Positions 4,830 to 45,778 of a stretch of DNA of 64,000 nt are shown here, piece by piece (the first letter of the stretch is position 1; every line of letters begins with the position of its first letter). The translations under genes were made by a program, and so were the position numbers. Source of the DNA: Schmidtea polychroa. Taxonomy: Eukaryota. The stretch is from contig CM097887.1 in NCBI GenBank assembly GCA_044892525.1, forward strand, positions 10,974,001-11,038,000, written 5' to 3'. The notes beneath the pieces were generated by a model. That model was not told the origin of the DNA. It ran no database searches and worked only from the letters and a program-made list of their open reading frames with translations.

Positions 4830-4989
4830 AAAGGAATATGACTGTATATAATTGTAAAAAGTAAGTATATCTTATGTATATAACAGTATTATATCTTTAT
4901 ATAAGCGCGGTATCAATATTATACAATAACGGGAATCATAAAATAAAATTAAATTTACATAAGAGTTGAAAAGAGTATATAAATTAGGA

Positions 4990-5349
4990 ATGGATCAAGG
5001 AAATAACGAAATGAACCACAATACAGTAACTGAAGAATTATGGAAGCAACAATGTGCCGTATTAGCACAATTAGTGTCCAATTTGCAAGAACAAGGACTG
5101 ACGATGCACAGAAACCTGATCGAGAGTATGAACAGAGGATTTAGTTATTTGAAGATAATTGAAGACCAGAGGTTAAAAATCGAACAAATGCAAAGAGAGA
5201 TAGAGAGGATAACCCAATATAGCCGTCGACAGGAAATTGAAATAGACAGAATGATGGAGGAAGCAGAACAGACAGAAATAGAAGACTGGTCGGAATGGCT
5301 AATGAATAGAGAGGAAAGCGGACACGAAGCCGACTCTTCCGAACCCTAA
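4990..5349 (+). CDS. Small coiled-coil protein, cargo ORF1 of element A
   Basis: Open frame 4966..5349; first ATG at 4990; heptad-like E/Q/L/I-rich central part and acidic C-terminus. Confidence 0.6.
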   Translation: MDQGNNEMNHNTVTEELWKQQCAVLAQLVSNLQEQGLTMHRNLIESMNRGFSYLKIIEDQRLKIEQMQREIERITQYSRRQEIEIDRMMEEAEQTEIEDWSEWLMNREESGHEADSSEP

Positions 5350-5434
5350 ACCAAACCTAGCTCAAAATGTAAATAATTGTAAATAAAATATCGAACCTGT
5401 ATCGATAAGAACTATTTGTACATATAATTATAGA

Positions 5435-6823
5435 ATGGATAAACGACAAAGAGAAGAGTTCAGAGAGATTGTCGAGCAAGTCCGAAAATCTACAACGATC
5501 AGAATACACAAACATGTTATGTGCGGAATATGTGAAAAGTTGTTAAAGGAACCTCACCAAACGCAATGTGGATGCAGAGTATGTAAAGAATGTATCAGTG
5601 AAGCAATAAAGAATAGACCACAAAGGTGCCCGGTGTGTAAAGAGACACTAATATCGAGTTTAGAAGACACTAACGAGGATAAAGCCGCAGTGAAAGACAT
5701 GTTAAACACCAACCTGGGATGCAAAAATGCCCCATGCGAATGGAAAGGAGTAATATGGAAGGTAGTACAACATATGGGAGAATGTATGTACAGAATTGGC
5801 CAGTGTGAAAGGTGCCATAAAACCATTCGAGCAAGCGAAGAAAAAGAGCATCAAAGGCAGTGTGAGGAGAGATTGGAAAGATGTGAACACTGTGGAGAAA
5901 TAGATACGTGGATAAATCTCACCCTCAAACATCACAATGTCCAAGAGGAGAGAGTATGTGCGGAGTTCAGTGGGGAATGCCCAAACGGATGTAACCAAGG
6001 GGAAACAATGAAGGTGGCACAGCATCTAAGGGAATGCGAAAAGAAAAGAATGACATGTGTACTAGGTAGATGGGGTTGTCAGAAATTACTACACCGAGGT
6101 GAGTTACCACATCATTTAGTAGAAAATGCTTCAACTCACGCAGAAATGTGGTCGACTGCGTTACAAGAAAGCGAAGAGAAAGTAAAACAAATGGAGATAG
6201 AGATAACATCGTTGAAAGTGTTAGTCAAAGAACTACTAGAAGAAAGGAAAGCGTTCGAAGAAGCCCGAGCAAACATAAAGATGCAAATAAACCGAACAGA
6301 AATTAGTAATAATCAGGCCAAGGAGCTACATCAGAAAATACGGGAAATAAATCTAAATGAGATAACCCCAACAGCACCCTACATATGGAAAATAACGGGA
6401 GTAAAAGAAAGAATACGAAAAGCAAAAACCGGAGAAGAGACAAGAATAACAAGTCCTACATTCCATTCTTGGAAAAATGGGTACAAAATGAAAATGAAGA
6501 TATATCCCAACGGGGACGGAACCGGATTAGATACGCACTTTTCGATTTTCTTTCTGTTATGTAAAGGAGAATACGACGAAATATTAGAATGGCCGTTCCA
6601 GGCAAAAATCGATATTACTCTGATGAGCAACCAAAGTATACATGAGCAAAGCTTCAAAACAACGGGGAATCAAATAGCTTACCAGAGGCCCCTCAACGAA
6701 GAAGGATCAGCAACAGGAGCACCTACGTTCATCTCACAACAAAGAGTAGAAGATATGGCGAGAAATGATACCATATATATCAAGATGACCGTGAGGAAAG
6801 AGGAGAAGGGTAGAACGGAATAA
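5435..6823 (+). CDS. TRAF: Intronless TNF receptor-associated factor (TRAF2/3/5-like): RING, TRAF zinc fingers, coiled coil, MATH domain; cargo ORF2 of element A
   Basis: CGIC-x11-CGCRVC..C-x10-CPVC RING; C-x3-C...H..C zinc fingers (CKNAPCEWKG...HMGEC); MATH motifs YIWKI, SPTF...GYKM...YPNGDGTG..THFSIFF...GEYDEILEWPF..K, DTIYIK. The specific paralog cannot be assigned by eye. Confidence 0.95.
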   Translation: MDKRQREEFREIVEQVRKSTTIRIHKHVMCGICEKLLKEPHQTQCGCRVCKECISEAIKNRPQRCPVCKETLISSLEDTNEDKAAVKDMLNTNLGCKNAPCEWKGVIWKVVQHMGECMYRIGQCERCHKTIRASEEKEHQRQCEERLERCEHCGEIDTWINLTLKHHNVQEERVCAEFSGECPNGCNQGETMKVAQHLRECEKKRMTCVLGRWGCQKLLHRGELPHHLVENASTHAEMWSTALQESEEKVKQMEIEITSLKVLVKELLEERKAFEEARANIKMQINRTEISNNQAKELHQKIREINLNEITPTAPYIWKITGVKERIRKAKTGEETRITSPTFHSWKNGYKMKMKIYPNGDGTGLDTHFSIFFLLCKGEYDEILEWPFQAKIDITLMSNQSIHEQSFKTTGNQIAYQRPLNEEGSATGAPTFISQQRVEDMARNDTIYIKMTVRKEEKGRTE

Positions 6824-7016
6824 CCAATCGAATAATGTTGTATATAATAATCTGTATATATCGGTGTATATAACTAATAAAATATTATATAATAATAGTA
6901 TGAAAACCCTAAATACGAAAACCCAAAAATGATGCGAAAATTTCCCAAGAAACAGTAAATAATGAATAAATTCCTTTTTCATAATAAAAAGATTAATCGA
7001 TGTCTATGATTTAGAG

Positions 7017-8072
7017 ATGACACAAGAGAAAATAACCGAAACTGCGATAGACCCAACCAATGTCAACAAGACACAAATTCCCCGAGAACATAACAAAAAA
7101 TGGAACAAAGTAATGTTCCAACTAACTAATCTCACCCGAAATCACATCGAAGAAACTAGAGAAGATGAGAATAGTCAATACCAATGGTTAATACACAACT
7201 TAAGAGCGGAAGCAGAAGCATGCAAAAGAGCATCAAAATGGGCGTCACTAGAAAATACCCGCCAAGAAGCACACAGACACTACTTAAAGCAGCTAGTGCA
7301 GGAAGCGAGAAAGAGACTTACCGATGAGAACACCAAGCGCGAAGCGGAAAAGCAAATAGAAGACAGGAAAATGATGCACTTAGTGGCAGAAGCGAGAAAA
7401 TGGAAAAGACAAAACAGAGAAATGAAAAAAGAGATGAAAGAATTGCCCATGAGACTCGGATACGAAAGCGAACAAGGTAAATGGGAGGAGAATTTAATAA
7501 TAAAGGAAGAATTGAAAAGGTTGAGAAAGGTCGCCGCCCGAAGCCAAACCTGGCAAACAAAGGCTATGGAGTTTGAGCGACATTTGGCAATGAAGTGCGA
7601 CATAAGAGAGCACGAGAATGCCGCAATGGAAGAGATGATAACCCAACAAGCGGGACGGGTTGTGGAATTAGTAAATCAGGTAGAAGAGATGAAAAGAGAC
7701 CTTAATGGATTACAAGGATCGCTGGAACAAAGAAACATGGTCCTAGCGGGAAAAAACAGAAAATTAGAAAACGAAAGGAAAATGTACACCGAAAATATTA
7801 AAAACTTAGAAATAGAAATTGAAAAATGGAAGGGCGACGAGAAAATCAAAGCCCTAGACAAACAGATAGAGGCGAAAGATGAAGAGACAAGGTATCTCAC
7901 CTATCTGCTCGACGAGGAATTGAATATCACTCGAGCTCTAAGAGACGAAGTTAGTGAATTGAGAGCTCAAATTCCCCAATATTACCTACCATACGACCCT
8001 ATTGCGATACAGTTACATTCCGCGGTCGATAGTGATGAAGGTTATGTAGGCCAGGAGGAAACCTTCGTATGA
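7017..8072 (+). CDS. Long coiled-coil protein, cargo ORF3 of element A
   Basis: 351-aa uninterrupted ORF, E/K/R/L-rich heptad pattern, acidic C-terminal tail; no recognisable family. Confidence 0.7.
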   Translation: MTQEKITETAIDPTNVNKTQIPREHNKKWNKVMFQLTNLTRNHIEETREDENSQYQWLIHNLRAEAEACKRASKWASLENTRQEAHRHYLKQLVQEARKRLTDENTKREAEKQIEDRKMMHLVAEARKWKRQNREMKKEMKELPMRLGYESEQGKWEENLIIKEELKRLRKVAARSQTWQTKAMEFERHLAMKCDIREHENAAMEEMITQQAGRVVELVNQVEEMKRDLNGLQGSLEQRNMVLAGKNRKLENERKMYTENIKNLEIEIEKWKGDEKIKALDKQIEAKDEETRYLTYLLDEELNITRALRDEVSELRAQIPQYYLPYDPIAIQLHSAVDSDEGYVGQEETFV

Positions 8073-8240
8073 GGGTGGATGAAAAGATGAAAAACTAAAA
8101 ACCGGGACGTATATCCCAAACAAAAAAATTAAAGTATTGTAAAAGTATTCAAGGGACTGTAACCCAAACTATTAAATTTTATATCAATGTATACGTATAA
8201 GTCGCACTATAGCGCACCATTAACTGTACATATTATAGAT

Positions 8241-8939
8241 ATGAAAATCGAGGAAATGATAGAAATTATGAGCGACGTAGAAGAGGGAGAGATTGAGGCA
8301 GAAACAACAGAAACACAAACGCTAAAGGCCGAGTTACGGGAAGAGAAATACGAAAACGGGAGATTAATAAACAAATACCTGGAGGACCGGAAAATGATAA
8401 AGGTGTTAAAGAAAGAGTGCGAAGCGTTGGGGGAAATAAAAAGAGAAACGGAAGAGGAAAATGAATGGCTACACGAACAAAGGAAGCGAGGGAAAAACTG
8501 GGAAAAGATAGCGGAAGAGCTATGGAAAGAGAGGGCAAGCTTCAAAGCAAAGGAGGTAATCCAAGACTACTGGAAAACTGAGGCGAAGGAGCGCCAAACA
8601 GCTATAAATAAATTAAAACGACAACTAGAAGAAAACCAACGGGAAAGTAAAGAAATGAGGAAGTGGGTCCGCAAATATAGAGAAATAGAAAGAAAACATC
8701 AACAACAAAATTACCTGCAAGAAAACGAACAAGATCTCCTACAAATCGAGCTAAAAAGAAACCTTGAAAAGAAAAGGGAAGAAATTAGACGCTTGGAAAA
8801 AGAAATTAGACATCTAAAGAGAGAAGCCCGTGAAAAAGACCGACAATTGGAAATGCTGCCCGAGTTAAGACACAGGGTAATTAAAGCAGAGTCCACCTTG
8901 ATGAGAATCGGCGAAAATAATCCAAATCAGAACCATTAA
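8241..8939 (+). CDS. Coiled-coil protein, cargo ORF4 of element A
   Basis: Open frame 8187..8939; ATG at 8241 preferred because it follows a TAG acceptor-like motif and the charged helical composition starts there. Confidence 0.65.
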   Translation: MKIEEMIEIMSDVEEGEIEAETTETQTLKAELREEKYENGRLINKYLEDRKMIKVLKKECEALGEIKRETEEENEWLHEQRKRGKNWEKIAEELWKERASFKAKEVIQDYWKTEAKERQTAINKLKRQLEENQRESKEMRKWVRKYREIERKHQQQNYLQENEQDLLQIELKRNLEKKREEIRRLEKEIRHLKREAREKDRQLEMLPELRHRVIKAESTLMRIGENNPNQNH

Positions 8940-8994
8940 ATTAAGGGTCATTAAAACCAATTGTAAATAAACATAATGAATGTATAATAGTATC

Positions 8995-9636
8995 ATGCGA
9001 GGCGAGATGATGATAACAATGATGGTATTGATGATTCTGATGGAGAGCAAACAAATAGACGCCCAACCGAAAATCGTACGAGATTACCGAAATCAAAATC
9101 AAGAACCTAAACAAGAATCCAGTCAATGCACATACCCGATGACCGTAAAAACCCATATCATCCAAACCATTCAATCAACCCGATCACACATCAACAACAT
9201 CCAAACAATGTGTAAAAAGAATCCCATTTGTAAAATGATAAACAAACAAATCCTCGAACAAATTCAACAATTCGACCAGTTGGAACAACAAATGCAACAA
9301 GAGAATTTTGGAAATCTGGTAGAAAAGCCAAAAATACCTCCCGAAATCAATGACACCCATTATCTCATATATGTGGTGATCGCAGAAACCCTCCTCCTAT
9401 GTCTACCAATATTCATGAAAATTTACGAAGTTCGAAATAGATGTAGAGTCTCGACATCAATAAGAGTAACCTCGAACCAAAATCCTCAAGAAGTGCCCCT
9501 GACAAATCTTAACCGACCTCGAACCCCGAGTAATCAACCAATCCAGCCGAAATCTAATAGTCAGACCTATCTCAACATCAATACCCAAACCAACCAACAG
9601 CCGCCAGCAGAAGCATCAATGGTTAACAGTTCATAA
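8995..9636 (+). CDS. Predicted small type-I membrane protein, cargo ORF5 of element A
   Basis: Signal-like MMITMMVLMILMESKQIDA; Q-rich ectodomain with three Cys; TM-like YLIYVVIAETLLLCLPIFM; P/Q/N/S-rich tail. Confidence 0.6.
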   Translation: MRGEMMITMMVLMILMESKQIDAQPKIVRDYRNQNQEPKQESSQCTYPMTVKTHIIQTIQSTRSHINNIQTMCKKNPICKMINKQILEQIQQFDQLEQQMQQENFGNLVEKPKIPPEINDTHYLIYVVIAETLLLCLPIFMKIYEVRNRCRVSTSIRVTSNQNPQEVPLTNLNRPRTPSNQPIQPKSNSQTYLNINTQTNQQPPAEASMVNSS

Positions 9637-9748: not shown

Positions 9749-10177
9749 ATTTTTATCATTGTTGTATAATTTTCCGTGTTCGTGTTATATTTTTTTTGAA
9801 TGAATGAATTAAGTTAATTATGCAATTGCGGGACGCAATTTTGATGGGTCCCCGAGTGATTTGTTGGGCTGAGTCGAAAATTTAATCGTTGAAAAATAGG
9901 AAAGTAGGGAAGTAGAACATTAAGAAAAATAATAATAAAATAAATAAAATCAGAAATAAAATAGAATAAGATATAAGGAAAATAATAAGTAAGACATAAG
10001 AATTAAAACAAAAAATAAAATTAAGAAAAGATTAAAATAGAACAAGTTGACAAATAAATAAAGAGGAATTCAAGAAATAATAAGGAAATTAAGGAAATAA
10101 ATAGAAAAACATATTAAAAATAAAGAAAATAAGGAAAAAACAACCTAAAAACAAGAAAATTATATTAAATTAATAGA

Positions 10178-10260
10178 AATAAGCGGTACTCAACTCTGAT
10201 TGGTCCGCACAAATAAGAATTTGATATATATACAACTACCAAAAACATTAAATTTACTGT
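10178..10260 (+). promoter_or_regulatory. LTR Pol II promoter: conserved box, inverted CCAAT, TATA, initiator-like site
   Basis: AATAAGCGGTACTCAA (10178-10193) and GATTGGTCCGC are shared with 63452-63481; TATATA at ~10225; Inr-like TTACT at ~10254-10258. Confidence 0.65.
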
Positions 10261-10756
10261 TAACCCCGAGCATTTCATAGGTAAGAAAAATGTTTACTGT
10301 TGTTTACGGTTAACCCCGAGCATTTCATAGACATCTACAACTCACGGAGACTTATTTCAAGGATCAGCAATACAAGTAGAGCAACAGTTAATTCGAAAAA
10401 CTTCACAGCAATTCGAAATCAGTCACAGCAATCGACATTCAACGAACCATCATCAGACTAATTTGGAACGACTAACGTTAATTTTCCGATTCAGCCTAAT
10501 TCCATAGTAAGGGATTTTTATTTATGATATTGTTTTTCGAAGTTAATAGTAAATATGTATATTTAATGAGCAATTAAACTTTTAAATTTAACCAGACTCT
10601 CTTTTCATTTGGTCCTGAATAACGATTTTGATAAAGTAAATAATTTAAATGTTTAAAAGTATTTATTGGTAACAGGTGAACTCTTACATAATTTTTATGG
10701 ATATTTATTTTGAAGTGATAGTTTCATGATTTCTAATATTAACGAGAAACGTGGCG

Positions 10757-10824
10757 TTGAGATACTCCATGTCATGGTGTGAGGTGCCTTCGGGAGCTCA
10801 GCCGGTGGACATGGAGTATTTCAA
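10757..10824 (+). other. Long RNA hairpin capped by a cUUCGg tetraloop inside the LTR
   Basis: TTGAGATACTCCATGTC (10757-10773) pairs with GACATGGAGTATTTCAA (10808-10824), 17 bp with one G-U; inner stem TGAG/CTCA and CC-TTCG-GG. Confidence 0.6.
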
Positions 10825-12734
10825 TCACGCAGCTAGATTGGGCCGAAATGTGAAGGCTTCTTCACGGGTCCAATTGCTGAAGGACTTAAAATCTGTCAGA
10901 GTACCGAAATATAGACCGAAAGGAAACCTTCTGAAAGTTTCGAAAATAGGATATGTGCTTCACAGCGACTGAGGGAGTTCTCATATTAACTCTGTATTGT
11001 CCAGAGTCGTCTTACAAGACATTCATGCCACTTCTGTCTATAAATCCGAACTTACCATGTGGGGGAAAATACCATTAAACATCCATCGCTGGTTTTCTAA
11101 CATATCGAGAAGTTGAAATTGCATTCGGTAGATTTTTGAAAAAGTAACTCTAATTTAGGTCATCTCTTTCAGATGCGACATCCAAATCTTAGCATATGAT
11201 GAGGAATTTACAATAAAGGAAAAGTAAAACATAAAACCACAATAATACTGTATTCAATCACATATATTAACAAAATCTGGTAATACCCATTGAATAATTT
11301 TCATGCTGTTGCGTCGAAATATCCACTACTGAAATATGCTTCATAGAGTCTAGTTGGCTGGTTCGTAGAGATCTCCCATCGTTCAAAAGCATCCAATATT
11401 GAGGAAATTACGAGTCGTAGTAAATAAATCCGACATCATAAGCTCAGATGGGAATCGACACGCGATGTAACATTTGCAGTTCGCTCAGTACGGTTGATAG
11501 TTACAGATAAAATTTCCATCGAATAGGCACCCATACATACAGACATACTGCTAACATAACTATGAGTAGCGTCATCCGGTCAGAAATATGCATGAGAAAC
11601 AGCAGAATCATTCCGAGTGCCTCTCACCGCAGGGAATGCCGCCATGTGTCACCCTCTCTAGGATTCTTAGTGTGTGAGTAGTAATCAGTGGTCCTATTAG
11701 ATAATGCTGACATGAGATGTGACTTCCAGATGACTGACTCTTAAATTTCACTACTGATAAAGGCCATTCGTACCACTAAAAAGATAAGCCAAATAACCAG
11801 TAACCGACTACTAAGATAAGGGACTCTCTAAAGTGCACCCATTAAAGATAATTTTGCTTAAATTAAATATGCTAAATAAAAATCGAAATTGTTGAAGGGG
11901 TATTTTAATTAATAATCGAAAATTCAAACCAAACTTTATAACTAAACCATAGGAAGTTTTACCTAAGTGTTGTAGAGGTTTATCGTAATTCTAATTAGAT
12001 GTTACAAATAATAGTAGTAGCCTTCGAGCCAAATTTAAATTAACTAAAGTATCTACAGGAATTTTTGGGTTATAAAATAGCTAGTAATATTGTAGTTAAA
12101 TTTCTCATATTCCCTGTAAATGACGTATTGTAATAGAAAACTAAATCCGATAACAAATTATTATGTAATTACAATATTTTTACGATGCTATATTTCTACG
12201 ACGATATCACCGTATGGTATGGATAAGGGGTAATCATAAAATAGTGACGTATAGTTTATACGAAATTACGAGTTGTTACTTATTCCGCTACTTGAGGTAA
12301 GGGTGCAAGTTTTTACTAGTTGCATTTGGTCCAAAAACCTTATTTTGCATTAGAATAACAACAAATAATCAGCGAAATTTAAACGAAGTGTAGTATAGTG
12401 TATTTGTAATGAAATAGGGTTATTCGCTCCGGCATGAATAAATCCGTAAATTGCCTTTATGTGCGATAGATAGAAATCCAACTCGAACGCGATAGACGAA
12501 AATTAAAATTTTTACAAATAATTTGCATTCGTCAGGGAAGCAATCAGGGCGTTGGGGAATAATTTTCTGTAAAGGATACGTAAAATATTAGTAATCAAGG
12601 GTGAAGGGAGGGATCCTGTTTCATCGACTCGTCTTGTTTTCTTCCAGCACTAAGTATCCAATAGCGAATAAACCGTATATCTGATCCGAAATTTTTGGAT
12701 ATAGTCATCATAGTTTTCTTCTTTAGCCATCCAT

Positions 12735-13487
12735 ATGTTATCAAACCACAAATCAGCTCTACGTCCCTGCTTCTCCTGCTCAGATAAAAATGCAGTGATT
12801 AAAGATCTTCAAGCCCAGATCGGTCGATATAAACGAAAAATCGACGAACTGGAAGGGACATGGTTTAGTCCCGCTCGGATGAAGGAGATCCAAAAGAAGC
12901 TCGATCGTAGCGAGCATTGCCGGGACGCGCTAATATCTGAGAGCCGTGCCCAAAGAAGTCTAATCAGAGAACAATCCGAGGCACTGCATAAGGTTTACGT
13001 GCAGGCGGCTACAACCCGAAAAATAGTGCAGATTCCCATCCGAGAGGCCGATGACATCTTTCCGCCTCATCACAACCTTTCCTCGAATCCATCTCCACCG
13101 TTCAAGAGACCGTGCCAAGACTGCGTCGAAAACGAATTGTCCCCCAAGCGACCAGATGTTGTCGTCACGGGTACCAGTAAGCCCCCCACTGCTAGTCCAT
13201 CTGTATCAGTCACCCCTCTGCAAGTGGCATCTTCAAGCAAACCCAAGCGCAAACAACTCTCTCGTGCAGAGCGCAAGAAGAGACAGCGCGAACGCGCCAC
13301 TACCAAGCCAAACATCCCATCAATAGAGGACTCAACCAACGGTGGCAACTCTCACGTGTCCATCGACCTAACAACGGGACCCTCAGCACGAATCATATCA
13401 GCCGCTGGCGTAACGTGGGAAGAGAACGCTTCCGAGTTTTTTAACCTCGACGAATTATTCGCCGACGCTGAATGGGAGAAACAATAG
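12735..13487 (+). CDS. 250-aa LTR-internal ORF (coiled coil, basic cluster, acidic-aromatic C-terminus; putative regulatory protein)
   Basis: Uninterrupted ORF in a GC-richer block; polypyrimidine acceptor ttttcttctttag (AG 12725-12726) just before ATG; KPKRKQLSRAERKKRQRER; C-terminal EFFNLDELFADAEWEKQ; AATAAA at 13611. Confidence 0.65.
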   Translation: MLSNHKSALRPCFSCSDKNAVIKDLQAQIGRYKRKIDELEGTWFSPARMKEIQKKLDRSEHCRDALISESRAQRSLIREQSEALHKVYVQAATTRKIVQIPIREADDIFPPHHNLSSNPSPPFKRPCQDCVENELSPKRPDVVVTGTSKPPTASPSVSVTPLQVASSSKPKRKQLSRAERKKRQRERATTKPNIPSIEDSTNGGNSHVSIDLTTGPSARIISAAGVTWEENASEFFNLDELFADAEWEKQ

Positions 13488-15769
13488 AACCCCAGTGGCG
13501 GTCAGGACGAAGAACAAGGATCCGATCTATGTTGATTATGATGTTTTCTCTTCTTTCGACAAACATTAGTAAAGTGTACAGCTGAATCCTTGTGTCATAA
13601 CGTTGAAATTAATAAATCTTGTTGTCTTACACGTTTTCGTTCATGAATAATTAGACTTTAATTAAGTGGGTTGAGTAGAGAACCCGCCAGATCTAGTGAG
13701 AAATTCCCAATTTGTATTCAGCGAATCCTGATAAGTGGTTGTGTAAGGAAAAGGACGTAAGCCCTTCTAACGGCAGTCGTGAATGGGAAGTCGAGGCCTC
13801 AGCAAGGAGTAGTTTTAAGGCAGAAGCTCACCTGCTTGCTGGCGTCTCGCCTGCATAGTGCAGTACCAACGTGAAGTGATTCACGGGCACTATGTTGGAA
13901 GAAAGTTATGTGGGGTTTCACTCCAGGTTGACAAATCGGTGGCACCTTTTATTCGAGATGGACAATCAACCCTTAGACCCGTCAACATGGTAGAGTGGTC
14001 AGCCGAGGTGTAACCCCAACAGTAAGTATAAATAGCCAATTTCTTATACAAAAAGAAAAAGACATATAAAAGCGTGATCATGCACAGAAAGGATAGTAAA
14101 GGAAGGTATAATGGAAGCAGTATTAGAAAATGCCAAAAGCAATTGCGAAAGGAAAGAATTCGGAAATCCGAGAAAAATCAATAAATTGTAAAATCATCGA
14201 AATCGAATTGGGAAAATGGGACAAGTATAGATTAGCTAATGGTTAACAAGATGATGATTAGGGATTTATCAGAAAATGGTTAGGAAGGGTCAAAAAGCAT
14301 TAAAAATGAATAAAAACAGAAAACATTAATTAATTAATTAATTGGCTAATAGAAAACCCGATCTAATGGGAAACCCGAGCCAATGGAGAACCCGAGATAT
14401 GAAGGAAACCCGAGCTGGGTAAACAAGAAGAAAAGTAAACAGAATGAAGATTTGGGCCCATTAGCTTGACACAATGATTAAGTGGAAAAGAGCAAGGAGA
14501 AGATAATGCGTGTAGAAAGGCCGGAAGGGCCATTAATTATCTTTGTTCGTTGGACCATTATGACTGACAGCCGAAACAGATATGTGGAAGCAAATGTCAA
14601 GTGAGAGATTGGCTCGGCAATAACCATTTGTCATCCCGATTTCGAAGAGTATATAAGGAAGGGGAAAATCAGAGCAAATCGGCATTTTGCCTCAGCTAGG
14701 GTTAGAATAAATCAAGCTTAGGAAAAGGTAAAAACGAATTTAGGAGATTAGGGAAAAATAAGATATAGAATAGGAATACGGAAAGGTGAAAAGAATCAAA
14801 TCAAACAGAAAAAGAGGAAAACGTGGGTCAAGAGAATCTAAAGAAATAAAAGGTGAATATTATCTTTTGTCAAAGCATCAACGCCGTGCTGAGAATCGGT
14901 CAAACGTAACTTTGACTATTGATTGTAAACTGTTGAGAAAAGATTGTAAATTTTGTTATTCCAATATACGTTGGGTCGTTATGGTTTTGATTTATAGGAC
15001 ACGAGGATTCAGAAGGTACCGACTTAAATTAACTGAAAACCCAACAAACAAAACAATTATTTTTACATATTACATTTTACATTTTTTACATTTTAAAAGT
15101 GAAAAAACGTGACAGTGACAGACTAATAACGTGGGTAAGAAGAAAACATAAAATCGCTCGCCACGAACAAAAAAATTAAACTTCCGGTGACTTTAAGAAA
15201 AAATAAATCTTGATTATCATTATTTTAGAGAAATCAAATAAAAGTTAAAACTTCAAAAACTGCACTTTTTTCTTGACAGAAAGACAGGAAATTTACATCT
15301 CTCTGGTCATAGTCAACCGGGAGACGGGAGACAAAAGCTGATTTCCAGAGACTCCCAGCCAAAACGGGAAAGTTGGCAAGCCTAGAAAGTACATTTGGTA
15401 AATTTACTCAATTGTTATTTTTCAAAAATTGAACTCGTATATAAAACCTTCAATTCTGAGAAATTGTGATATAAAGAAAATATGTTTTATTATTTGATGG
15501 ATTTTGGTTGATTTAGCCAAAAGGACATGCGGAGTCATGAAATGAAATTCTACCCGAACCTTTGAATATTAACCCAACAATTATAAACTGAAACATTTAA
15601 ATAAATTCCTTTAAAAATTTTCAAGTTCACTTAGCATTTTATATACTAAAAAGTAATCCTTAAAATATAAATTGTTTTAAAATTGTTGAAGTATTGTACA
15701 CCAAGAAACGCTTTTCATTTTTTTCAGTTTTTCATATTAATAAATTATATGTCTCTTAAGTCTTCTAAT

Positions 15770-16468: not shown

Positions 16469-19400
16469 TTATCTGAGTAGAGGCATTCTTTCATTGTTGT
16501 ATATATAATTTGGTCTTTCCTCCTTCTCCTCATCTTCTTCAATGACTTTATAAGTCGTGTGACTTATTTGGTTAGGTCTGAAGCAATACAACCCTACAAG
16601 GGTGGCAACTACAACTACAACGACAACCGCCGTTAGAATGTAGTAAATGTCTGACGAGCTCTTTTCGAAATCTAGTGGGTCGTCTAAAATAAAAATATAA
16701 AATTTTAATTTCAATTATAGAGATTTCATTTTGTTTACAAAACTAACAAATCTTACTTGTGAATAATCTATTTCCAATAATATTGTTATCGTAAGCATAG
16801 CCGAACTTATTTGCCGGAGTAAACAAATTCTTATTTCTGATTAATGGTATGAAAGGCACAATAAAGTCATCACTATGCTGTCCAATTGGTATTGAAAATT
16901 TTTCCGGGTACTAATAATATTTAATTACTATAATTAAATTGGAGTAAATTCCCAAAATGCAAATTTAAAATTATTAACTAGAAAATTTTTAAATAAAATT
17001 ATAAGAAATAAAATTTATAAAAAGAAGTCAAACTTTATATTTTACTTATAATTTGTCAGTACTATATATATCAGCTTTTTTGGCGAATAATATATTTTTT
17101 TATTAAATTAATTAAATAATTTTATCCTTATGAATAATATTTTCATGAATATATATTTATACTTACATATTTATATTAAGATATTAATTTTTTTATTTGT
17201 CTGTCGGAAATATTTGTAATGAGCTTAATGGAGATGATTCTATTAAAGTTGATCTTATTTTTTATATTACAAATTTTACATAAATTTTCTCCTATTTCCT
17301 TTTATTTTATATTTGATTTTAAATTTATTTTTATTTAATTTAGTATTTTATAATATATATTAATAGAAGAGGATATAATAGAGGAGCATGGTGAACCATT
17401 TGTAAGAACGGTGGTGACACCCTCGTGGTATCAAGGGTTATTATTACTGATGTGTTTCTACTAGTCTTGTACCACCAACTGAGCAAAACTGGGATAGACT
17501 GGATAACCATTCTATGGGATCCCATCAAAATGTATTTTTAAAAACTAAGTATTTTTCCTCTCCAAATTTCCAAAAAGAAAAAAAATACTCACTGGTATTG
17601 GCTCCCGGTTAATCACATTATTTATCGAGTATTTTAATATAAATTTCTTTTTTTTAAGTAACAAGAACAACAAACCTACTTTAGATAGTGTATTTCTCAA
17701 AAGCCAAATTTCGAAGATTTTGTCCATAAATGTGTGGTGCAGTAAAAATAATGGATCATTGGGACTCGTAGTGAAATCCATCCAAGTTCCATTAATAAAA
17801 CTATGAACCTCATAAAGCTTAAGTTTAATACGATAAAATCATAATTTTCTTTTACCATATTATGAATCATGACATTTTGATGGGTCAGTCCTTTTCCTAT
17901 GTCTTTCATTCTCACGTCATTTGTATCTGGATCAACTCGATAATATCCTTCGGCGAAATTCCGAAAACTTTTCCTACTAAATGTGCTTGAATTGAAGGGT
18001 TCCGAATCATATTGGTTGACTGAGAATAACTCATCAATTTCGTTTTGATTAGGAAGTCTATCAACTGTCAATGAATATTTTCGCCATAAAAATGGTTCCT
18101 CTTGACCAGGATCGCAAATATGACAATCAAAATCGTAAGATTTCTGAGGGCAAATTGGTTTCCATTTGAAAAATGTGTTGTTAGAATCTTGTTCCTCAGT
18201 GGGAATATCGCCAAGTAAGTCATTTGTACATATATTACAAGTTGTTTGATTTGTCCAGTCCCAATAGGGCAAGGTAAAATTATAATATTCAAATTGTTCG
18301 ACAGCAATACTACTTAATAAGTCTTCAAACATCAGTAAATAATGTCGATGCCACGTAAAAANNNNNNNNNNNNNNNNNNNNNNNNNNNNNNNNNNNNNNN
18401 NNNNNNNNNNNNNNNNNNNNNNNNNNNNNNNNNNNNNNNNNNNNNNNNNNNNNNNNNNNNNNNNNNNNNNNNNNNNNNNNNNNNNNNNNNNNNNNNNNNN
18501 NNNNNNNNNNNNNNNNNNNNNNNNNNNNNNNNNNNNNNNNNNNNNNNNNNNNNNNNNNNNNNNNNNNNNNNNNNNNNNNNNNNNNACGAATAAATCACAA
18601 TCCTCTAAAATTAATATCAGCAACGAATTTATTGATATTATTTCATTAACTCATTAAATTATAAATACTACATCATAATTGTTTCCGTATATAGCATTTG
18701 ACACAGATTATGATGTCCGACTGATGATGAAGAAAATATCCTTTAAATATTTTTCATTTGTTTGGTGTTTTAATTAAAAATGAACCATAAATTTTTTGAT
18801 ATAACAATAATAATAACAATAATAACAATAATAACAATAATAATAATAATAATAATAGTAAAATGAAATAAAAAAAGCTTATAGTTGAAACAAAATTTTC
18901 TGTTCAAAACATAATAACATTTGCGATTCTATTTTTGATGGGTTGTTTCTAGTAATAATAATTTTTAGAAATTGTTAAAAATTATAGTTATTTAATTAGT
19001 TAAAATCTTACTTTATGAGCGAAGTCTAATTTGTTGTCCTTCTCAGTACATGATTCCATTAGATCTTTAGAAATCGTACTCCTGGACGCATAGAAATGCA
19101 AGTAAACCATTGTATCATAAATGGTGGCATTGACCAATTGAATGTTATTCTCATTGACAGGGTCGCAATGAAGATTTGAAGAAGAATTAGTGATCATGAA
19201 ATCCGACAACTGATATTTGCTGATGTTAAGTACTGACAAAAAAATAAAAACATCATATGATCCCATGTTGAGAATATTTTGTCTAATCTTTTTCGGTGAA
19301 GCTATCTCACAGTTTTTCCCTTGCCATCCTGATTTACACTTGTCACAAGCTATCCCATCATAATTTGATATGCAAATGCAAAGGAATTTAAAAAATCTTG

Positions 19401-19733
19401 ATGGCCAGTTGAGTCTGTCATCATTTTCCAATTTTCCGATAATAACATCTGGGTGCTCTGTGTGATTTTGAAAGGGAATGGTAATCTCACAAGATCCACG
19501 CAACGGACCACCGCAAATCAAATCTAAGGCAAATAAATATATTTCCACAAAACTAAATAAAATTTACCATTATACGTTGGACAACACATTGAGTTAAAAA
19601 GTGTGGCATTTCCACTGCAAATCTTTGGTATTAAGAAATCATTCAAAGGTAAGAAAGATGCGAAGATTAAACCTATTGTGATAACCAGCATGATTAAACT
19701 ACCAAAGAAAAAACCTTCAGTTTTATAAGTCAT
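16469..19733 (-). CDS. tyr: Tyrosinase / tyrosinase-related protein, multi-exon (19733-19568, 19523-19012, ~18597-17856 across the gap, 17808-17680, 16910-16757, 16683-16469)
   Basis: Signal peptide, CCP, CGG..RGSC, DDRLNWP, C.C.SNYDG..C..CKSGWQG..C; CuA LHFYASR...DFAH...TWHRHYLL...LPYWDW; CuB IHNM|VHSFINGT...SPNDPLFLLHH; PIG...VPFIPL; TM AVVVVVVVATLVGLYC; C-terminal ERMPLL. GT-AG introns of 44 and 47 nt with consistent phases. Confidence 0.9.
18362..18585. other. Assembly gap (N run) within the tyrosinase CuA region
   Basis: Run of N. Confidence 1.
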
Positions 19734-19979
19734 GTAAATGATCAAGTTACTTAATTATAGGATCATAGTTTTATATAATTATAGTTCAGAGATGTCATAA
19801 TATTACATATTATTCACCTTTTGTACTTTTGTCAACATTTTGACTCGTTTTATATTGAATTTCATTGTTCAAGAATGGCGAAAATTATGATAAAGGGGTG
19901 AATTTTACAACTAAATATTTTGCGATAGGTAAAATACAATAAAATAATATAATATATTTGAGGGAAATATTTATTGATA

Positions 19980-20146
19980 NNNNNNNNNNNNNNNNNNNNN
20001 NNNNNNNNNNNNNNNNNNNNNNNNNNNNNNNNNNNNNNNNNNNNNNNNNNNNNNNNNNNNNNNNNNNNNNNNNNNNNNNNNNNNNNNNNNNNNNNNNNNN
20101 NNNNNNNNNNNNNNNNNNNNNNNNNNNNNNNNNNNNNNNNNNNNNN
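19980..20146. other. Assembly gap (N run)
   Basis: Run of N. Confidence 1.
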
Positions 20147-20290
20147 TGTTTATTAATAATTATATTACTTTCTAAAATCACTCCAACACGAAATATAACT
20201 GATTTATCTAATCGCATCATTCTTTACATTTTATTGTTGTGAACTTAATAAATGAACTTATTTGTTGGATAATTTAAATTATAGGAATGT

Positions 20291-21330
20291 CTATAATTTA
20301 TTTAAAGTACACAAAAATTTGGCTATTTTATACTGGACAGTGCCAATCATGGATAAAACAGGTCTCAAAGGCACGCCATCTTTATGTATTTTTGGAAGCC
20401 CATACATTTTTGCTGGTTGTGATCCCTTTGGGCGAATAGATTTAAACATCTCTTCATCAATTTGCTTATTTTTAATTAATTTATTCAGTATTTCTTTCAA
20501 CAAATTCCCATCCTTAAGAGGAGGCTGTATTCCATTTTTTTGAGAAATCTCTATTTTCACAAACTGGGGAGCGTTCAAAACCTCATTAAGCTTATTTACA
20601 TATAAATCGTGGTCAAGAATTACCAATCCGTTTCCTTTGTCAAACTTGCATATATTGATGTCTTTTTTAGCTAAATTTTTTAATACAGTAAAATCTTTAA
20701 TATTCTGCTTTTTATTTATATCAATATACTCCATCGTACTCGAACTCAACACACTCTTAATATTAATATTTATAATATTAATATTAGTATTAATATCCTT
20801 CATCGATCTAAGCATATGAAAGTATAAACTTTCAATCTTCACACATAATTTTGTTTCATCAATTCTTTTCTTAATGGAATGATTGGGACCAAATTTCAAA
20901 ATGTTATTCATTGAACCATATTGGTGAGCACAATAAGGGCTGTAAGATTAAAATAGGTATGTCTGATTTTAAAATTTTATAAAAAATTTCCATAATTATT
21001 GGGAACGTGTGATTTGTGAGGCGTTGTTGATAAAATCATTGAATCCAAAAATTAATGTGCAGAATTCAGTAAATACTTGTGTTTTGAGTGTTTTTAAATA
21101 AGTTTTTAAATAGGTTTTTATATTGTATGTATTGATTGTTGTATTAAATTAAATAATTAATAAAAAAATTTTAAATTATTAAATTAAATTTTAAATGTTA
21201 AAATTTAAAAAAAAATGTATTTTTTTATAAAATAAAAATATTTTTTATATATAATTAATAAATTTGTTTAAAATACTTAATTTAATGAGTTATTATATCC
21301 CACCTGATGATGACAGGAAAACTGTCGAAA
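20291..21330 (-). mobile_element. Penelope-like element fragment: RT N-terminal part (minus) with an inverted pseudo-LTR (plus) holding the GIY-YIG tail and a hammerhead-like core
   Basis: KFDKGNGLVILD...Y..K and YGLPKIHKDGVPLRPVLSMIGT..YKIAKFL (20291-20911, minus); ERVICEALLIKSLNPKINVQ (~21003-21063, plus); CTGATGA-TGACAG-GAAAA-CTGTC-GAAA (21304-21330). Confidence 0.75.
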
Positions 21331-22341: not shown

Positions 22342-22687
22342 GTTAGAATAATCTCAATTGTGCTACATAGTAATGTTTAATATTTTTATTTAATATAAAA
22401 GTTTTGACAAAGTTTCATGGCAGTGTAAATGTAAATGATCTCCAATTAAATATTTTACCATCTCAGAATGGTAACTAGTGAAATTAATTTTGTAAATTAG
22501 ACGTGTGATCAATTGAACTGTGGAGTTCATTATTTATTTTAATGTTTTTAATTTAATAAGAATTTTTAAAAACACGGTGGAATTATTTAGAATAAAAGTA
22601 ATATATTTTTCATAAACACAAACATTTCAATGGATTTGTCAATGTGGAACAGTTGTGAAATAAGAATATTCTTCATAATCACACATG

Positions 22688-23513
22688 TCCAATACAATCA
22701 CTAATATATCCAATACAATCACCAATATATCCAATACAATCACCAATATATCCAATACAATCACCAATATATCCAATACAATCACCAATATATCCAATAC
22801 AATCACCAATATATCCAATACAATCACTAATATGTCCAATACAATCACTAATATATCAAATACAATCACTAATATATCCAATACAATCACATATATCCAA
22901 TACAATCACTAATATGTCCAATACAATCACTAATATATCAAATACAATCACTAATATATCCAATACAATCACTAATATATCCAATACAATCACTAATATG
23001 TCCAATACAATCACTAATATATCCAATACAATCACCAATATATCCAATACAATCACCAATATATCCAATACAATCACTAATATGTCCAATACAATCACTA
23101 ATATATCCAATACAATCACCAATATATCCAATACAATCACCAATATATCCAATACAATCACCAATATATCCAATACAATCACCAATATATCCAATACAAT
23201 CACCAATATATCCAATACAATCACTAATATGTCCAATACAATCACTAATATATCCAATACAATCACCAATATATCCAATACAATCACCAATATATCCAAT
23301 ACAATCACTAATATGTCCAATACAATCACTAATATATCCAATACAATCACCAATATATCCAATACAATCACCAATATATCCAATACAATCACCAATATAT
23401 CCAATACAATCACCAATATATCCAATACAATCACCAATATATCCAATACAATCACTAATATGTCCAATACAATCACTAATATATCAAATACAATCACTAA
23501 TATATCCAATACA
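22688..23513. repeat. 21-bp minisatellite, ~39 units (TCCAATACAATCACYAATATR)
   Basis: Directly visible tandem array; one 19-bp unit near 22890. Confidence 0.97.
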
Positions 23514-25073
23514 AAATTGACATCAATAATTAAATTCCGAAAATATCTCCAGGTACATTGAAATATTGTAAAACCATTAGCTTGGAATACGAATATTTGC
23601 ACGAAATAATTGTTGATGAGTTGTTGACCTCAAATTACGATCCACATCATCGATTATATTCAAAAAAGCTTGATTCGGTTATTGATAAATTCAAAAATGA
23701 GAGTAAAAGTGTTATATTGAAAGGGTTATATTGAATGGATATTTTTGCTTCTAAAATGTTACAGTTTAAGTAGTAAGAAAATGCAACAATGAAATATCCT
23801 AAATCTAACCCTAACAGTAGTATATAATGAGCAGTATGTCCTGTCGCATATGGGGGTCTTAAAAAAATTTTTTATGAGGTATTTGACCAAATATCCCAGA
23901 ACTGCCTAGAACAATGATTCTTAAGTCTAATATCTGATTCGACATACTGCTCCTTCTACACTACTAATTTCCTTACCTTGATTGTTTGTACCACATTTTC
24001 GGAATGCTAAAAATTCTAATGAAAAACAATCAAAAATTCAAATGATTTCTGAAGTTAACTGTTGGGTGAATCGTGTGAGTAATGAATAAGAGCTTAGAGG
24101 AAACCTAAATAAAATGATTACAATGAATTAAAATAAATCTAGAGTAGTTATGAATAATAGGCTAAAACGAGAGACCATATAACATATAAACCGCCTGAAC
24201 GTATGTAAATTTAACGAAAAAGATCAACCATAACAAAAAGAAAACAAAAACAATAAATTGATACGCGCAAGCAGTTGCACAAGAAACATTTTAATACAGG
24301 AAAAAAACAAATTTCGCCAAAAATACACAAAACAGCAAAAAATATCAGATTATCCAAGGTGTGAGATTGATATAAAAATGCGATCGCTCAATCAATCAGG
24401 AAAATAGAAAAATAAAAGTAAAAACCAACAATTAAGACAAAAAATGAAATGGACCAACCAAATCGATTAGAATTTAAATCAAAAATTTAAAAATTAAACT
24501 TATCGAAATGCTTAGGCGCAGTCGATACGGATTGGTTGTGCAAACCAATAAAAAATTACTTTTACAAAATTTTGGCTTTTGCTATCTTTACAAAACACTT
24601 CAAATTTTCATTTATATGTATTTTAATTGTTTCATTTCATTTTTCTGTAGTGCTCACAAGAAAAATATTACTTTTAACATTCATAATTCGTATATTTTTT
24701 CTTTTATTATTATGCATATTTTTATATTTTTCGTGAAGCAAGTCTCAAAAAATCTATCTACTTATATATTTTTGACATTAAGATGACGCCTCATGAGATT
24801 ATAAGGTAGAGGCTCACAAGAGTTTCCTTGCCTAATCTCGCGAGATGTCGTTTTAATGTCCCGTCAGACATGTCACAATCGAAATGCCACGCACCTCCAC
24901 TATGTTTTATAGTTGTAAATTCAGCGATTTGATAATAAACTAAAAGTATAGTACTAAAACCTAACAGGGTACGATAAGTTGAATGTTTCCACAATAGCTG
25001 TAGTCAGCTATTCGGGCCTATAGAGTTGACAAATTAGCATAATCTGAATGATCATCTGTTATATCTCTCCCGA

Positions 25074-38399: not shown

Positions 38400-39880
38400 C
38401 AGGGGTTCCCAAACTTTTACCAGTCGAGACCCACTATTTAGACCGCAAAGTTTTCGCGACCCACCTGTAAATAAAACAAGAAAAAAGCTAAAAATGTTGA
38501 TTTACATATTTATTTAACACGCATATTTAAGAATAATTAATAGGATGAATGAGATGAATGAGCCTGCTTTCTATTTTTTGCAATAACATCTTCGACATCT
38601 ACTTTTATATTTGTTGTTTTTAAGCGAAATGAGTTTGATAGCTGTAATTTGTTGCGATATTTATTTTTTATTGCAATCATTGACGAAAATGCAACCTCGC
38701 ATAGATAAGAAGTTGTGAAAGGAAGCAATACTTTTAACGCTGCGGTGCGTAAAGTTGGATATGTGTTTTGCACCGATAACCAAAACTGTAACAATTTCGT
38801 ACCGTCAAAATGTAATTTAACAACACTATCTTCGAATAGCTCAATTAATTCCTCATCCGCTATCGTCGATATACCGGTAACTAAACCACTTTGAAATGGA
38901 TTTTGAACCCATGTATATTTTTCTAGATTTTTCATTTCTCCATAGAAATAAAAATCAAAATTTTCTTTAAGTCTGTCCAAATGCTCAATTATTAAAGAAA
39001 TTAAATCGTTATTGGGCGTTACTTCATTTTCAATGATAAAAGTTTGGAATGTATCAAAGCAGTCATATTTATTTTCTTGAACATTATTTTTCCACAACAT
39101 AAGTTTTTTTGTAAAAGCTTTTATTTTACCATGAACCGAAAATATATCAATTCCATTTGTTCCTTGTAATTGTAAATTTAAATCGTTCAATTTCGAAAAT
39201 ATATCTGCTAAATAAGTCAGCAAAACTACATATTTCACATCGCGCAAATTTGATTTGTTTATGTTCATGTAAATATATTGCTACTTCTTCGCGAAGTTCA
39301 ACAAGTCTTGTCAGGACTTTGCCTTTCGATAGCCAGCGAACATAGCCTTTTCATTAATGCTGATGAAGCGAGAAAATAGATTTTTTGAATTATTTAATTC
39401 CTGTAATTTGGTTTTAAAATAATCAATAGGCTTATTTTTTAAATCGGAATGTTTCGTCTCAAAATGTCGTATTAATTTGTTAGGTCGCATACTTTCATTA
39501 GCCAGAATTTCTTGACAAATAACACACTGTGGGCGTGGATCATCTTCTTTTCTATTCCATGTAAATCCAAATTTTAGATATTCAGAATCATATTTTCTTT
39601 TGCCACGTTTTGATGATTGCGAACTTGTTGAAGGATTCTCACCAAATTTTCTCTTATTATCTGTTTTTGTTGCTACAGAACCTTCTTTTTCTTTTTCATT
39701 TTCAATTTGTTTGATTTTGCCCAGGAGTCTTTTTCAACCACTTATCCATCGCAGCAATGGTTCTTTAAAAATAAGAATATTAAGAACTTTATTTATTACA
39801 TGAAATACTATAGCACTAAATTTAAAAAATACTTACATTTGATTTTAAATTATGTTTTTTATTAACGAAACACTTTTATT

Positions 39881-40990: not shown

Positions 40991-42675
40991 CCCTTTCTAA
41001 GGCAAAGGAAACTAAAAGTGATGTAAAACTCAAAGTTTATTGATAATAATTATATAGTTACAAATGATCATCAAAAAATAAAAACAGATAAAAAAACAAG
41101 AGGCTTTTAGGGAGAGCTATTCGTGAAATTTCTTGAAGCAGTTTATGCACAGAGCTAGATTACATGTTGTGCATCCAATATTCGACCTTTTGTTGTTTGT
41201 CTTCGAGCTACAAAATCTTTTTTTATTCTTTAGTGAAGTTGATAATTTCTTTATCACTTTACTTCCTAGGCCCTCTTCGACCCCATCTTCAAGCTTTCCG
41301 GTATAAACATCAAATTGGTATAAATAGCCTGTGTTCGAGTCCGCCCTAGCCCAAACTTTATATCCACGCTTTACAGGATTCATAGGCATATATTGTTTAA
41401 TGCCTGAAAGGCCTTTGAATTTAATCATAGCCTCATCAATTGACTGCAAACTAGATGAGTGGCACTCTATCTTAAATTTGGTATTCAATATGTCAATAAG
41501 AGACCGTACGTTATATAGCTTGTCGCGATTAGCACAGCTCACTGCAGGAGCTTGACTGTTATCATTGCAATGCAGTGCTTCCAATATTGTTTTGAATCGT
41601 TTTATAGGCATGCAGTCAGCTATAGGCTTTACTAAAAACAATGGGTCTGATGACCAAAACGAATCAATGGATGGTAAATAATGAAGCGCCATACCAATCA
41701 AGATGCCAAAAAATGCGTTTAGTTCTTCTAGAGTGACAGGAACCCAGTTCTTAATTTTTACTTGTTGTGCATAAAGATTAGTTTGGTTCACTAAGTCTGT
41801 AATTACTTGGGCATCATAAAATCTTTGAAAATATACAACTGGTCCATCTGTACAGAAAAATTGTATGTTGGACTTACATTTACAGTATCAAAATCGATTG
41901 GTAAATCTCTTTCATGTTGGAGTTCACCTTTATTCCATATGGATTCTTCACTTCAGAGTCTACTTCCATATTTTCTTCGGGTAAAGAACTAGAAAGAGAC
42001 TCATTGTCGCTCAAATAACATACTTCCATCAAATTATCAATTGCGGTAGATTGAGGGCAGGATTAGTTGGATTGATCAGGAACACTGACAGTAGCTTCCA
42101 ATATTTCATCATCTTCAAAGCCATCAAATGAATTATTGTCATCAAAATTTTCCAACTCCGTCTCGATATCTTCAATGTTCAAAAATTTCTTAGAAGTCAT
42201 TTCTAAACAATTGAATAATTGAAATAAAAGGTTGAATATATAGTGACATTCAAAGGCAGTGGCAAGTACGTGGCCACCAATGCTACCATCAAACGGGCAG
42301 TGTACACTATCTTGCCACCCAAAGTTTTGCAACAAAATTTTCAAAATATAGATATAGTAGAAGGAAAATAATAATTTCATAGGAATACTGCATTATTTAT
42401 CGCATCAAAATAATAAATAATATACCTTTTGAATCGAAGATCAATTATATAAATGAAGATTTATGTAGTAGGTCACACACACTTGCTTGTCAGCTGTCAA
42501 TAAATATAGCGGGAAAACACATCTATGGTTTCAAATACTATAAATTTGTTCTCTTGTGGCTCAATATATGTCAGTAGTTGTACCAAAAGTAAAAGTGATT
42601 ACCGACAGCGTTACATTTAGATATTTTTATTAGTTTAAAATGGTGTACAGTATATTGCCACCACCTTAGAAAGGG
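40991..42675 (-). mobile_element. piggyBac element with intact ends and an internally deleted transposase
   Basis: TTAA TSDs (40987-40990, 42676-42679); perfect 12-bp TIR CCCTTTCTAAGG; SIDEAMIKFKG...KQYMPM.PVKRGYKVW...YLYQFDVYTGK fused directly to the C-terminal C..C...C..CF..FH. Confidence 0.93.
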
Positions 42676-44622: not shown

Positions 44623-45115
44623 ATTTTAATATTATCAACAAATAAGATAAATTTATTCGTATGGGGTTTATTTTATTATAATGTCACCACGAAACAATAT
44701 AATTGCATAAATAAATAATTTAGTTCACATCAAATTGTTAATAATCAAATATAAGTTATTATCAATATGGTAATGTCACATAATCCCATAGATATTGTCA
44801 TTATTGATTATTGTCCACATGTTTATTTATCCTGTGCCTATTTGTTCCTATTGTGTAATATTTAAGTTTCAAAATCTTTAATGTTCTTCCATCTTCTAAC
44901 ACAAGTAAAATAACATAAATTATACAATTATATTTTTCTTTGAAAATATCGTAGATTTTCAATTTTTAATTATAAGTTAAAATATTGTAAGTTTTTACCA
45001 TTTAGCCTGATAGGCATATATATAAATATCTGGGCCTAGATTTACACTGCTCCAATTTGTGTCTTTTATTCAATTTGCATCGACATTTTAAAATTATTCT
45101 ATCAAAAAATAAATG

Positions 45116-45778
45116 TGTTGAGGCTGTTAAATTAAAATTATCTTAAATTAAATTAGAATTATTTTGAATCAAAAGAAAATTGAAGTGAAACGAAAGAGAA
45201 TCGCAATCAAGCAGAGAATTGAAGTCAAAGAAAGACATAAGGAAAACAGAAGGAGGAAAAGGTGTAAGCAGATACGGAATGGAAAAAAATGCAAATCGGA
45301 GAAATTGGAATAAATTGAAAAGTTATCAAAATCGAAGCTGGAAAACGGAATAGGTGTAGATCAGGGATTGGCGAAGAAGATAGCGAGCAAGAAATTGTCA
45401 GAAAATGTCTTGAAAGGGTCGAAAACAGGTAAAAAGGTTAAAACAGAAATCATTAATTAATTAATTAATTGGCTAATGGAAAACCCGGGCTAATGGGAAG
45501 TCCGAGCCAATGGAGAACCCGAGAGATGAAGAAACCTCGAGCACGGTTATTAGGGAAAATAAACAAACCGAACGTTGGAGAACGATTATCAAAACAAACA
45601 AAACGACTTTTGGAGAGACATTATCTTAACAACCGAGCGCGGCAATCGAGAAAAATAAACAGTTTAACTTTTAGAGAACTATTATGGAATCAACAGGATA
45701 AGTGAGGGTAAATAAAAAGATCGGAAATAACATGAAGGAACGGTAGAAGTGATTAATTATAGTTATTTTATCATAATA
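45116..45778 (+). repeat. Truncated 5' LTR of element B
   Basis: Near-identical to 51808-52471, then breaks off. Confidence 0.92.

Follow-up and report, generated by a model that had tools for sequence, protein, structure and literature searches.

A duplicated mini-exon in the LTR of a giant planarian gypsy element suggests a split R region that may rebuild its own intron

The window analyzed here is a stretch of 64,000 nucleotides from Schmidtea polychroa (contig CM097887.1), and it contains, at positions 9862-14021 of the forward strand, the 4160-bp 3' LTR of a ~30.4-kb gypsy element of the Burro type. The 5' LTR of this element lies 26.3 kb upstream (L031, 1068-5227). The two LTRs are identical, a 4-bp target duplication flanks the insertion, and a primer-site-like sequence directly follows the 5' LTR. 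The long frame of the element (4732 aa) encodes gag, a viral fusion glycoprotein, protease (PR), reverse transcriptase (RT), RNase H (RH), integrase (IN) and ankyrin repeats, and its accessory frames encode RING and TRAF/MATH domains. Five accessory frames, including the RING-TRAF/MATH frame, occupy 4963-9636 of the forward strand, with a YAG 1-4 nt before each ATG (4990, 5435, 7017, 8241 and 8995). Another frame of 250 aa is encoded by the LTR itself (12735-13487, forward strand), behind an acceptor ending at 12726, and returned no Pfam match.

Planarian Burro elements have been described as ~30 kb long, with a huge gag-env-pol frame, ankyrin repeats and MATH/TRAF and RING domains (PMC6431247; PMC13465017; PMC8532177). 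Judged against these published descriptions by its ~30-kb size and its polyprotein layout, the window element is a Burro-type giant gypsy: it shares the fusion glycoprotein placed before protease and RT, the ankyrin repeats and the MATH/TRAF and RING cargo, and it combines multi-kb LTRs and a target duplication with a single gag-fusion protein-PR-RT-RH-IN-ankyrin polyprotein. It differs from Burro, as far as the accessible parts of these accounts go, in carrying TRAF in a downstream accessory frame and in that domain searches of the 30.4-kb element, which matched MATH/TRAF and RING, returned no match for BIR or BCL2.

Several further features surround the element. The flank before the 3' LTR (9840-9861) is conserved, being the same in both families, but does not have the form of a typical polypurine tract. 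The bases at its end are found again immediately behind the 5' LTR, ahead of the primer-site-like sequence. Tandem units of ~60 nt lie between the RING frame and gag (L031 6650-7220). The insertion target was an LTR of another gypsy family (14022-15046), 75% related to the LTRs at 45113-45778 and 51805-52471. Pieces of a host gene with tyrosinase, DOMON and EGF-like matches are found on the reverse strand at 17697-20947, with N stretches nearby, and a 21-nt minisatellite and hAT and piggyBac-like transposase fragments occupy 22515-23650, 38537-39280 and 41117-41887.

Within the 3' LTR, a promoter block (10180-10232; this and all following features on the forward strand) contains a reversed CCAAT box (10198-10203) and a TATA box (10225-10232). 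Behind it lies a 25-nt sequence (10256-10280, hereafter copy 1), the predicted first exon and 5' R region, an assignment based on the TATA spacing, the repeat boundary and the ladder of G residues at copy 2 described below; besides 10256, positions 10253-10255 are likely also used as starts. A predicted GT-AG intron of 50 nt (intron 1, 10281-10330) follows, the 3' end of which repeats the exon (copy 2, 10306-10330), so that copy 2, the likely landing site and 3' R, supplies both the putative branch point (A at 10313) and the acceptor AG. Predicted exon 2 (10331-10506) holds no ATG and ends at a second donor (donor 2, 10507-10512). When compared over 10253-10280 and 10303-10330, the copies show one mismatch, a T in copy 1 versus a G at 10308, and this G is private to the window insertion, where it is found in both LTRs. 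A sister solo LTR of the same group (63153-64000, running on to 67122 past the window) has the same arrangement, with an exon at 63530-63555, a 56-nt intron at 63556-63611, copy 2 at 63586-63611 and donor 2 at 63753. The longest exact close repeat is 22 nt in the window LTR and 28 nt in its sister, versus at most 11 and 12 nt in 300 dinucleotide shuffles of each, and two control LTRs in the window (45113-45778 and 14021-15046) have no such repeat, their longest being 10 and 12 nt. Both layouts, both donors and both intron lengths reported in the first-pass annotation were found in place and exceed what shuffling produces. The repeat is not a plain tandem array, as it begins at the likely transcription start and ends exactly at the AG.

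We then asked how widespread this layout is. The promoter block had 556 exact matches in the genome (control, 0), and 99 of the first 100 listed LTRs were examined; 83 of these have two copies of the exon, one has three and 15 have one, among the latter L083, which retains a donor and a broken copy 2. The full series of TATA box, 24-26-nt exon, GT, spacer, exon copy and AG is present in 84/99 related LTRs. All 84 multi-copy LTRs have the GT and the YAG, and their introns measure 44-54 nt and their exons 24-26 nt. They also have a branch-like motif (loose pattern) 16-19 nt from the intron end, and they thereby show the GT donor, branch motif, YAG and minimal length of a spliceosomal U2 intron; in 82/84 the TATA box lies 30-33 nt before +1. 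The suggestion that the LTR encodes a mini-exon with a real-looking GT-AG intron is supported by these counts. An independent anchor, the downstream hairpin described below, gave 707 matches, and the first 30 examined comprised 21 double, three single and one disrupted LTR and five from another lineage. This sister lineage (L229, L230, L231, L245 and L250) has the hairpin, a longer U3, a different promoter and no repeat; it carries two GT sites separated by ~80 nt, of which the second immediately follows an AG, and constitutes a natural control. The layout marks one large lineage and is not universal among relatives. Within the layout-bearing lineage an RT piece is 99-100% identical, and in the RT search for other lineages the 150 matches scored, of 9925, were all 99-100% identical. 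The LTRs of insertions with such near-identical RT differ by 30-50%, which suggests LTR swapping or a fast turnover of promoter and leader. LTRs with the same exon 2 but a different U3 were not encountered in 79 records, and a metagenome scan for the promoter gave 0 matches.

The survey also confirmed that the structure is kept while the sequence changes, as 48 different exon sequences occur among the 84 LTRs, with a mean identity between types of 70%. The sister 27-mer of the first-pass annotation is indeed a different sequence; calling it unrelated went too far, since all exon types have in common an initiator-like start, a TTAAY-like branch motif and the YAG. Against this diversity, copy 1 and its own copy 2 are on average 99.1% identical: 68 of the 84 copies are perfect, 80 of 84 are closest to their own copy 1, and 213/226 differing sites among 104 (non-independent) pairs are mirrored in copy 2. 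Copy identity is 95-100% from +1, which is an A 30-33 nt after the TATA box, drops to 60-69% at -1 to -3 and to 13-57% beyond, and stops at the AG.

Such a repeat could have arisen by a one-time tandem duplication that created the intron, as proposed in the first-pass annotation, with unspliced RNA being copied as in ordinary retroviruses and gene conversion keeping the copies alike. Intron birth by duplication is a known route, at least in the accessible parts of the reports describing it (PMC3265369; PMC4974935), and, as there, the acceptor in the window LTR is provided by an intron 3' end that duplicates the exon upstream; the logic of an unspliced template would also suit donor 2. The pattern expected from a single duplication spanning AG|GT followed by divergence was not found, however. 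Across the 48 types the two copies have kept 99% identity. The repeat starts at +1, and most types lack a duplicated AG|GT (exon 2 starts with GT in only 16/84 multi-copy LTRs). Duplication predicts, moreover, that the scar left by strand transfer lies before copy 1.

This scar appears to lie before copy 2. The bases just before copy 2 (10302-10305) are hypervariable and likely represent a minus-strand transfer scar, as they occur in 10 forms in 39 insertions of the window's family (of ~137 LTRs in the family, 75 were caught by the junction pattern and a further 20 were read separately). Four of the forms consist of a single G at -1, -2, -3 or -4. Among 68 distinct records, a G at -1 is present in 14/68 before copy 2 versus 0/68 before copy 1 (p = 6e-5). 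The bases before copy 1 are invariant in 98 of 100 listed LTRs; the exception, a single case, is one intronless insertion, as would be expected if landing had been on copy 1. In all 34 LTR pairs and one triplet (paired by eye) the junction form is identical between the LTRs of an insertion, which indicates that it arises before integration, during reverse transcription. No other window varies as much as the junction in subfamily 1a (6 versus at most 4; 19 insertions) and, narrowly, in family 2 (9 versus 8; 19 insertions), but not in subfamily 1b (3 versus 6; 8 insertions). Homopolymer slippage was rejected as the cause of this hypervariability, the variants of family 2 being substitutions outside runs. 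At G000:C2:177677905-177730403 two elements stand in tandem with the middle LTR in common, and all three LTRs have the same junction form. Changes confined to copy 2 are not common to any independent insertions; the two cases in which one is shared are segmental duplicates. A recombination break between subfamilies 1a and 1b lies right after copy 2, with identities mostly above 90% before it and 38-70% in the next bins. In HIV-1, cap copying places a G directly before the start site and misaligned minus-strand transfer leaves small indels (PMC12172438, in the part available). The LTRs of the window's lineage resemble this system in the G right before the start, the misalignment indels and the recombination at the transfer point, and copy 2 displays what characterizes an R region, namely pre-integration variation together with a putative cap G immediately ahead of the start that is joined there.

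The position of the scar largely refutes the one-time duplication, all the more so as the junction variants common to both LTRs predate integration, and we regard that origin as very unlikely. One could also place the transcription start at copy 2 and treat copy 1 as a U3 element, given that the scar marks the joined RNA 5' end and sits at copy 2. Against this, the TATA box lies 30-33 nt before copy 1 in 82/84 LTRs, and nothing would then copy changes between the units or keep the GT, the intron length and the YAG, making such a start extremely unlikely. A recursive splice site at copy 1 was also considered and rejected, as it explains neither the exon copy nor the scar.

If transcription starts at copy 1 and joining occurs before copy 2, and if the copy number is nonetheless two, the 5' end of the template must have lost the spacer and copy 2 while the 3' end kept both. 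We therefore consider it most likely that the repeat is a split R region and that the intron of the element RNA is spliced out and then rebuilt at reverse transcription, with splicing, transcription start and RNA 3' end all deduced from the DNA. Transcription would begin at copy 1, and splicing of the cap-proximal 50-nt intron would leave one copy at the RNA 5' end, while the 3' end would stay unspliced and run from U3 through copy 1 and the spacer into copy 2. The minus-strand strong-stop cDNA, to which a G copied from the cap or other additional bases would often have been added, would anneal to copy 2 and be extended from there through the spacer, copy 1 and U3. The order of exon, GT, spacer, exon copy and AG would thereby be restored in the new LTR, and the sequence of exon 1 would replace that of copy 2. 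Exon 1 would in this way provide its own intron with both branch point and acceptor, which would account for the branch motif and AG within it. Intronless LTRs would arise where the cDNA lands on copy 1, and triples where the 5' end is unspliced. That the 3' copy of the intron is not removed would be understandable if the RNA ended within copy 2 or immediately behind it.

The by-products that this split-R model predicts are seen among the insertions: a triple, intronless insertions, the lack of any shared copy-2-only change and the break after copy 2. The triple-copy LTR is a single one (L144), and the intronless LTRs number 12, corresponding to 7 insertions of one subfamily in which both LTRs are alike (10 checked). 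Intronless LTRs can also come from slippage between the repeats. In an alternative reading, cDNA might land on copy 2 as proposed, with RT slippage between the repeats skipping the 5' spacer and splicing being confined to translated RNAs. This would yield the same DNA product and account for the scar, the concerted change, the singles and the triples. Slippage between 25-nt repeats would, however, have to be nearly complete, as only 1 triple was found in 99 LTRs, and it fails on changes at the exon 1/exon 2 joint that track splice-site choice. In L123, a 12-nt repeat after an internal CAG is fixed in the DNA at this joint, and a 31-nt loss ending at an AG is likewise fixed. Exon 2 begins with GTAA in 14/76 records (one of them L083), compared with 0.0009 per position, and these starts occur mostly where the donor has GT or GC at +5 (8/10 versus 22/58). 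For the 6-nt repeats at exon 2 in L122 and L126, the expected internal AG is absent. The changes fixed at the exon joint support loss of the 5' spacer by splicing, and RT slippage seems an improbable, if slightly better, contender than the one-time duplication.

Four presumed-RNA contig sets were compared with 10180-14020; two gave no matches and two gave short pieces of 90-99% identity, none covering 10309-10695, and among these contigs neither an RNA end at the repeat nor a joint to other transcripts was seen. Short reads are hardly able to distinguish spliced 5' ends, whose sequence would be almost the same as that of copy 2 followed by exon 2. In one RNA-type contig an A tail lies shortly before the TATA box; it could result from priming on a run of A residues, or it could mark a 3' end that comes too early for the split-R model. 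A conserved poly(A) signal inside intron 1 was not found (3 matches in 72 records). A start at 10256 would make U3 only ~395 bp and R-U5 ~3.77 kb, with its own reading frame, so that an unusual length would be required of either the strong-stop cDNA or R. Under the split-R model strong-stop cDNA would measure ~3.7 kb, and this length counts against it.

Downstream of the intron, the donor-2 pattern is present in 86/99 LTRs and is kept in the DNA; none of the copies of the window's subfamily lacks the donor-2 G. Exons 1 and 2 together contain 5 ATGs versus 68 expected (72 leaders). A YAG lies 1-8 nt before an ATG in 7/7 accessory frames, against a background of 30%, although in two of them the ATG concerned is the second in-frame one; the acceptors postulated before the cargo genes are thus borne out. 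The ATG-poor leader and these YAGs point to donor 2 as the likely major donor for cargo mRNAs. The 7/7 YAGs and the strong exon-1 donor would also fit the suggestion that exon 1 serves chiefly as a spliced leader specific to the element, or as a major donor, with direct joining to the cargo acceptors in cis or trans and the duplication as a by-product, and planarians do have spliced-leader trans-splicing according to the accessible part of PMC10899757. Host trans-splicing onto the cargo acceptors may occur (PMC10899757), and direct exon-1-to-cargo joints may exist as a minor form. A search of Rfam gave no match at E 1, the exon-1 donor has its own cis acceptor 50 nt on, and the purging of ATG from exon 2 implies that exon 2 is normally in the leader and that donor 2 is its end. 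Neither the exon copy nor the scar is explained by a leader function, which we rate as remote a prospect as the one-time duplication; it is more likely, from the sequence features above, that donor 2 (10507) feeds the cargo in cis than that a trans-spliced leader does.

Two putative RNA structures accompany this region. A conserved double hairpin (10743-10892; z -6.9) downstream of donor 2 is a candidate packaging signal, with 98% of cells paired and 6/42 pairs showing double changes in 38 types; it has no Rfam match. Its loop region (10790-10805) resembles the primer-site-like sequence after the 5' LTR (L031 5236-5252). In addition, a motif before donor 2 (10487-10499), found in 123/127 LTRs, shows complementarity to the 18 nt with which the LTR opens (9862-9879), including G-U pairs as well as compensating changes. 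Over 36 distinct LTR types, 534/576 cells are paired versus 526 in shuffles (0/5000), a statistic that ignores kinship. The covarying pairs suggest that the two likely engage in long-range RNA pairing. Neither this pairing nor a mechanism based on reverse transcription featured in the first-pass annotation.

Taken together, the split-R model probably holds in its full form, in which every cycle removes the intron from the RNA used for replication and restores it at the first strand transfer, exon 1 acts as initiator, R, branch point and acceptor, and progeny without the intron leave no lasting line. The intron persists although roughly one in seven LTRs has lost it. Intronless insertions are scattered on the trees, whose support is weak, and LTR records and pairs are not independent. 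Because intronless copies arise repeatedly yet form no lasting clade, the intron is likely maintained by selection, for expression or export.

Parts of this mechanism have precedents. In complex retroviruses the major splice donor lies in or near R, with the packaging signal downstream, and unspliced RNA is copied. The window element resembles them in donor 2, the ATG-free leader, the several accessory acceptors and the hairpin behind the donor; we know of no complex retrovirus that splices and rebuilds an intron in R. Ty1 uses long-range RNA pairing between CYC5 and CYC3, a motif of the 5' region and the start of U3, and Penelope and Ogre elements keep introns by copying unspliced RNA. The motif pairing with the U3 start recalls the former, and the intron inside a retroelement the latter. 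To our knowledge, retroelements retain introns only by copying unspliced RNA. Retroviral R regions are short (15-250 nt), and a donor in or near R serves U1 and poly(A) control in complex retroviruses (PMC12789967, accessible part). As far as the accessible parts of two accounts go, known retroviral R occurs once per LTR with the scar at the start site (PMC12172438; PMC12789967), whereas in the window LTR R would occur twice, with the scar 50 nt downstream of the start site and inside an intron. Introns born by tandem duplication stem, in the available descriptions, from a single DNA event followed by decay (PMC3265369; PMC4974935), while the window intron is likely renewed at each replication by RT. 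The accessible parts of the Burro accounts mention no LTR exons, introns or duplicated first exon (PMC6431247; PMC13465017; PMC8532177). Our literature searches found no description of a split R that rebuilds an intron, which appears new in this scope; two primary Burro papers may bear on its novelty.

If the model is true, reverse transcription, the usual eraser of introns, becomes their maker, and introns could be gained in a new way, through RT. The very RNA that is copied would profit from a cap-proximal intron, and this intron would still be inherited. The hundreds of genomic copies form a countable natural record of first-strand transfer, with its start-site spread, cap copying, landing choice and splice errors. 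A Burro-type element has been reported to be important for planarian stem cells (PMC13465017, in its accessible part and citing another paper), and the model, if true, would offer a testable reason why an element relevant to stem cells needs an intron.
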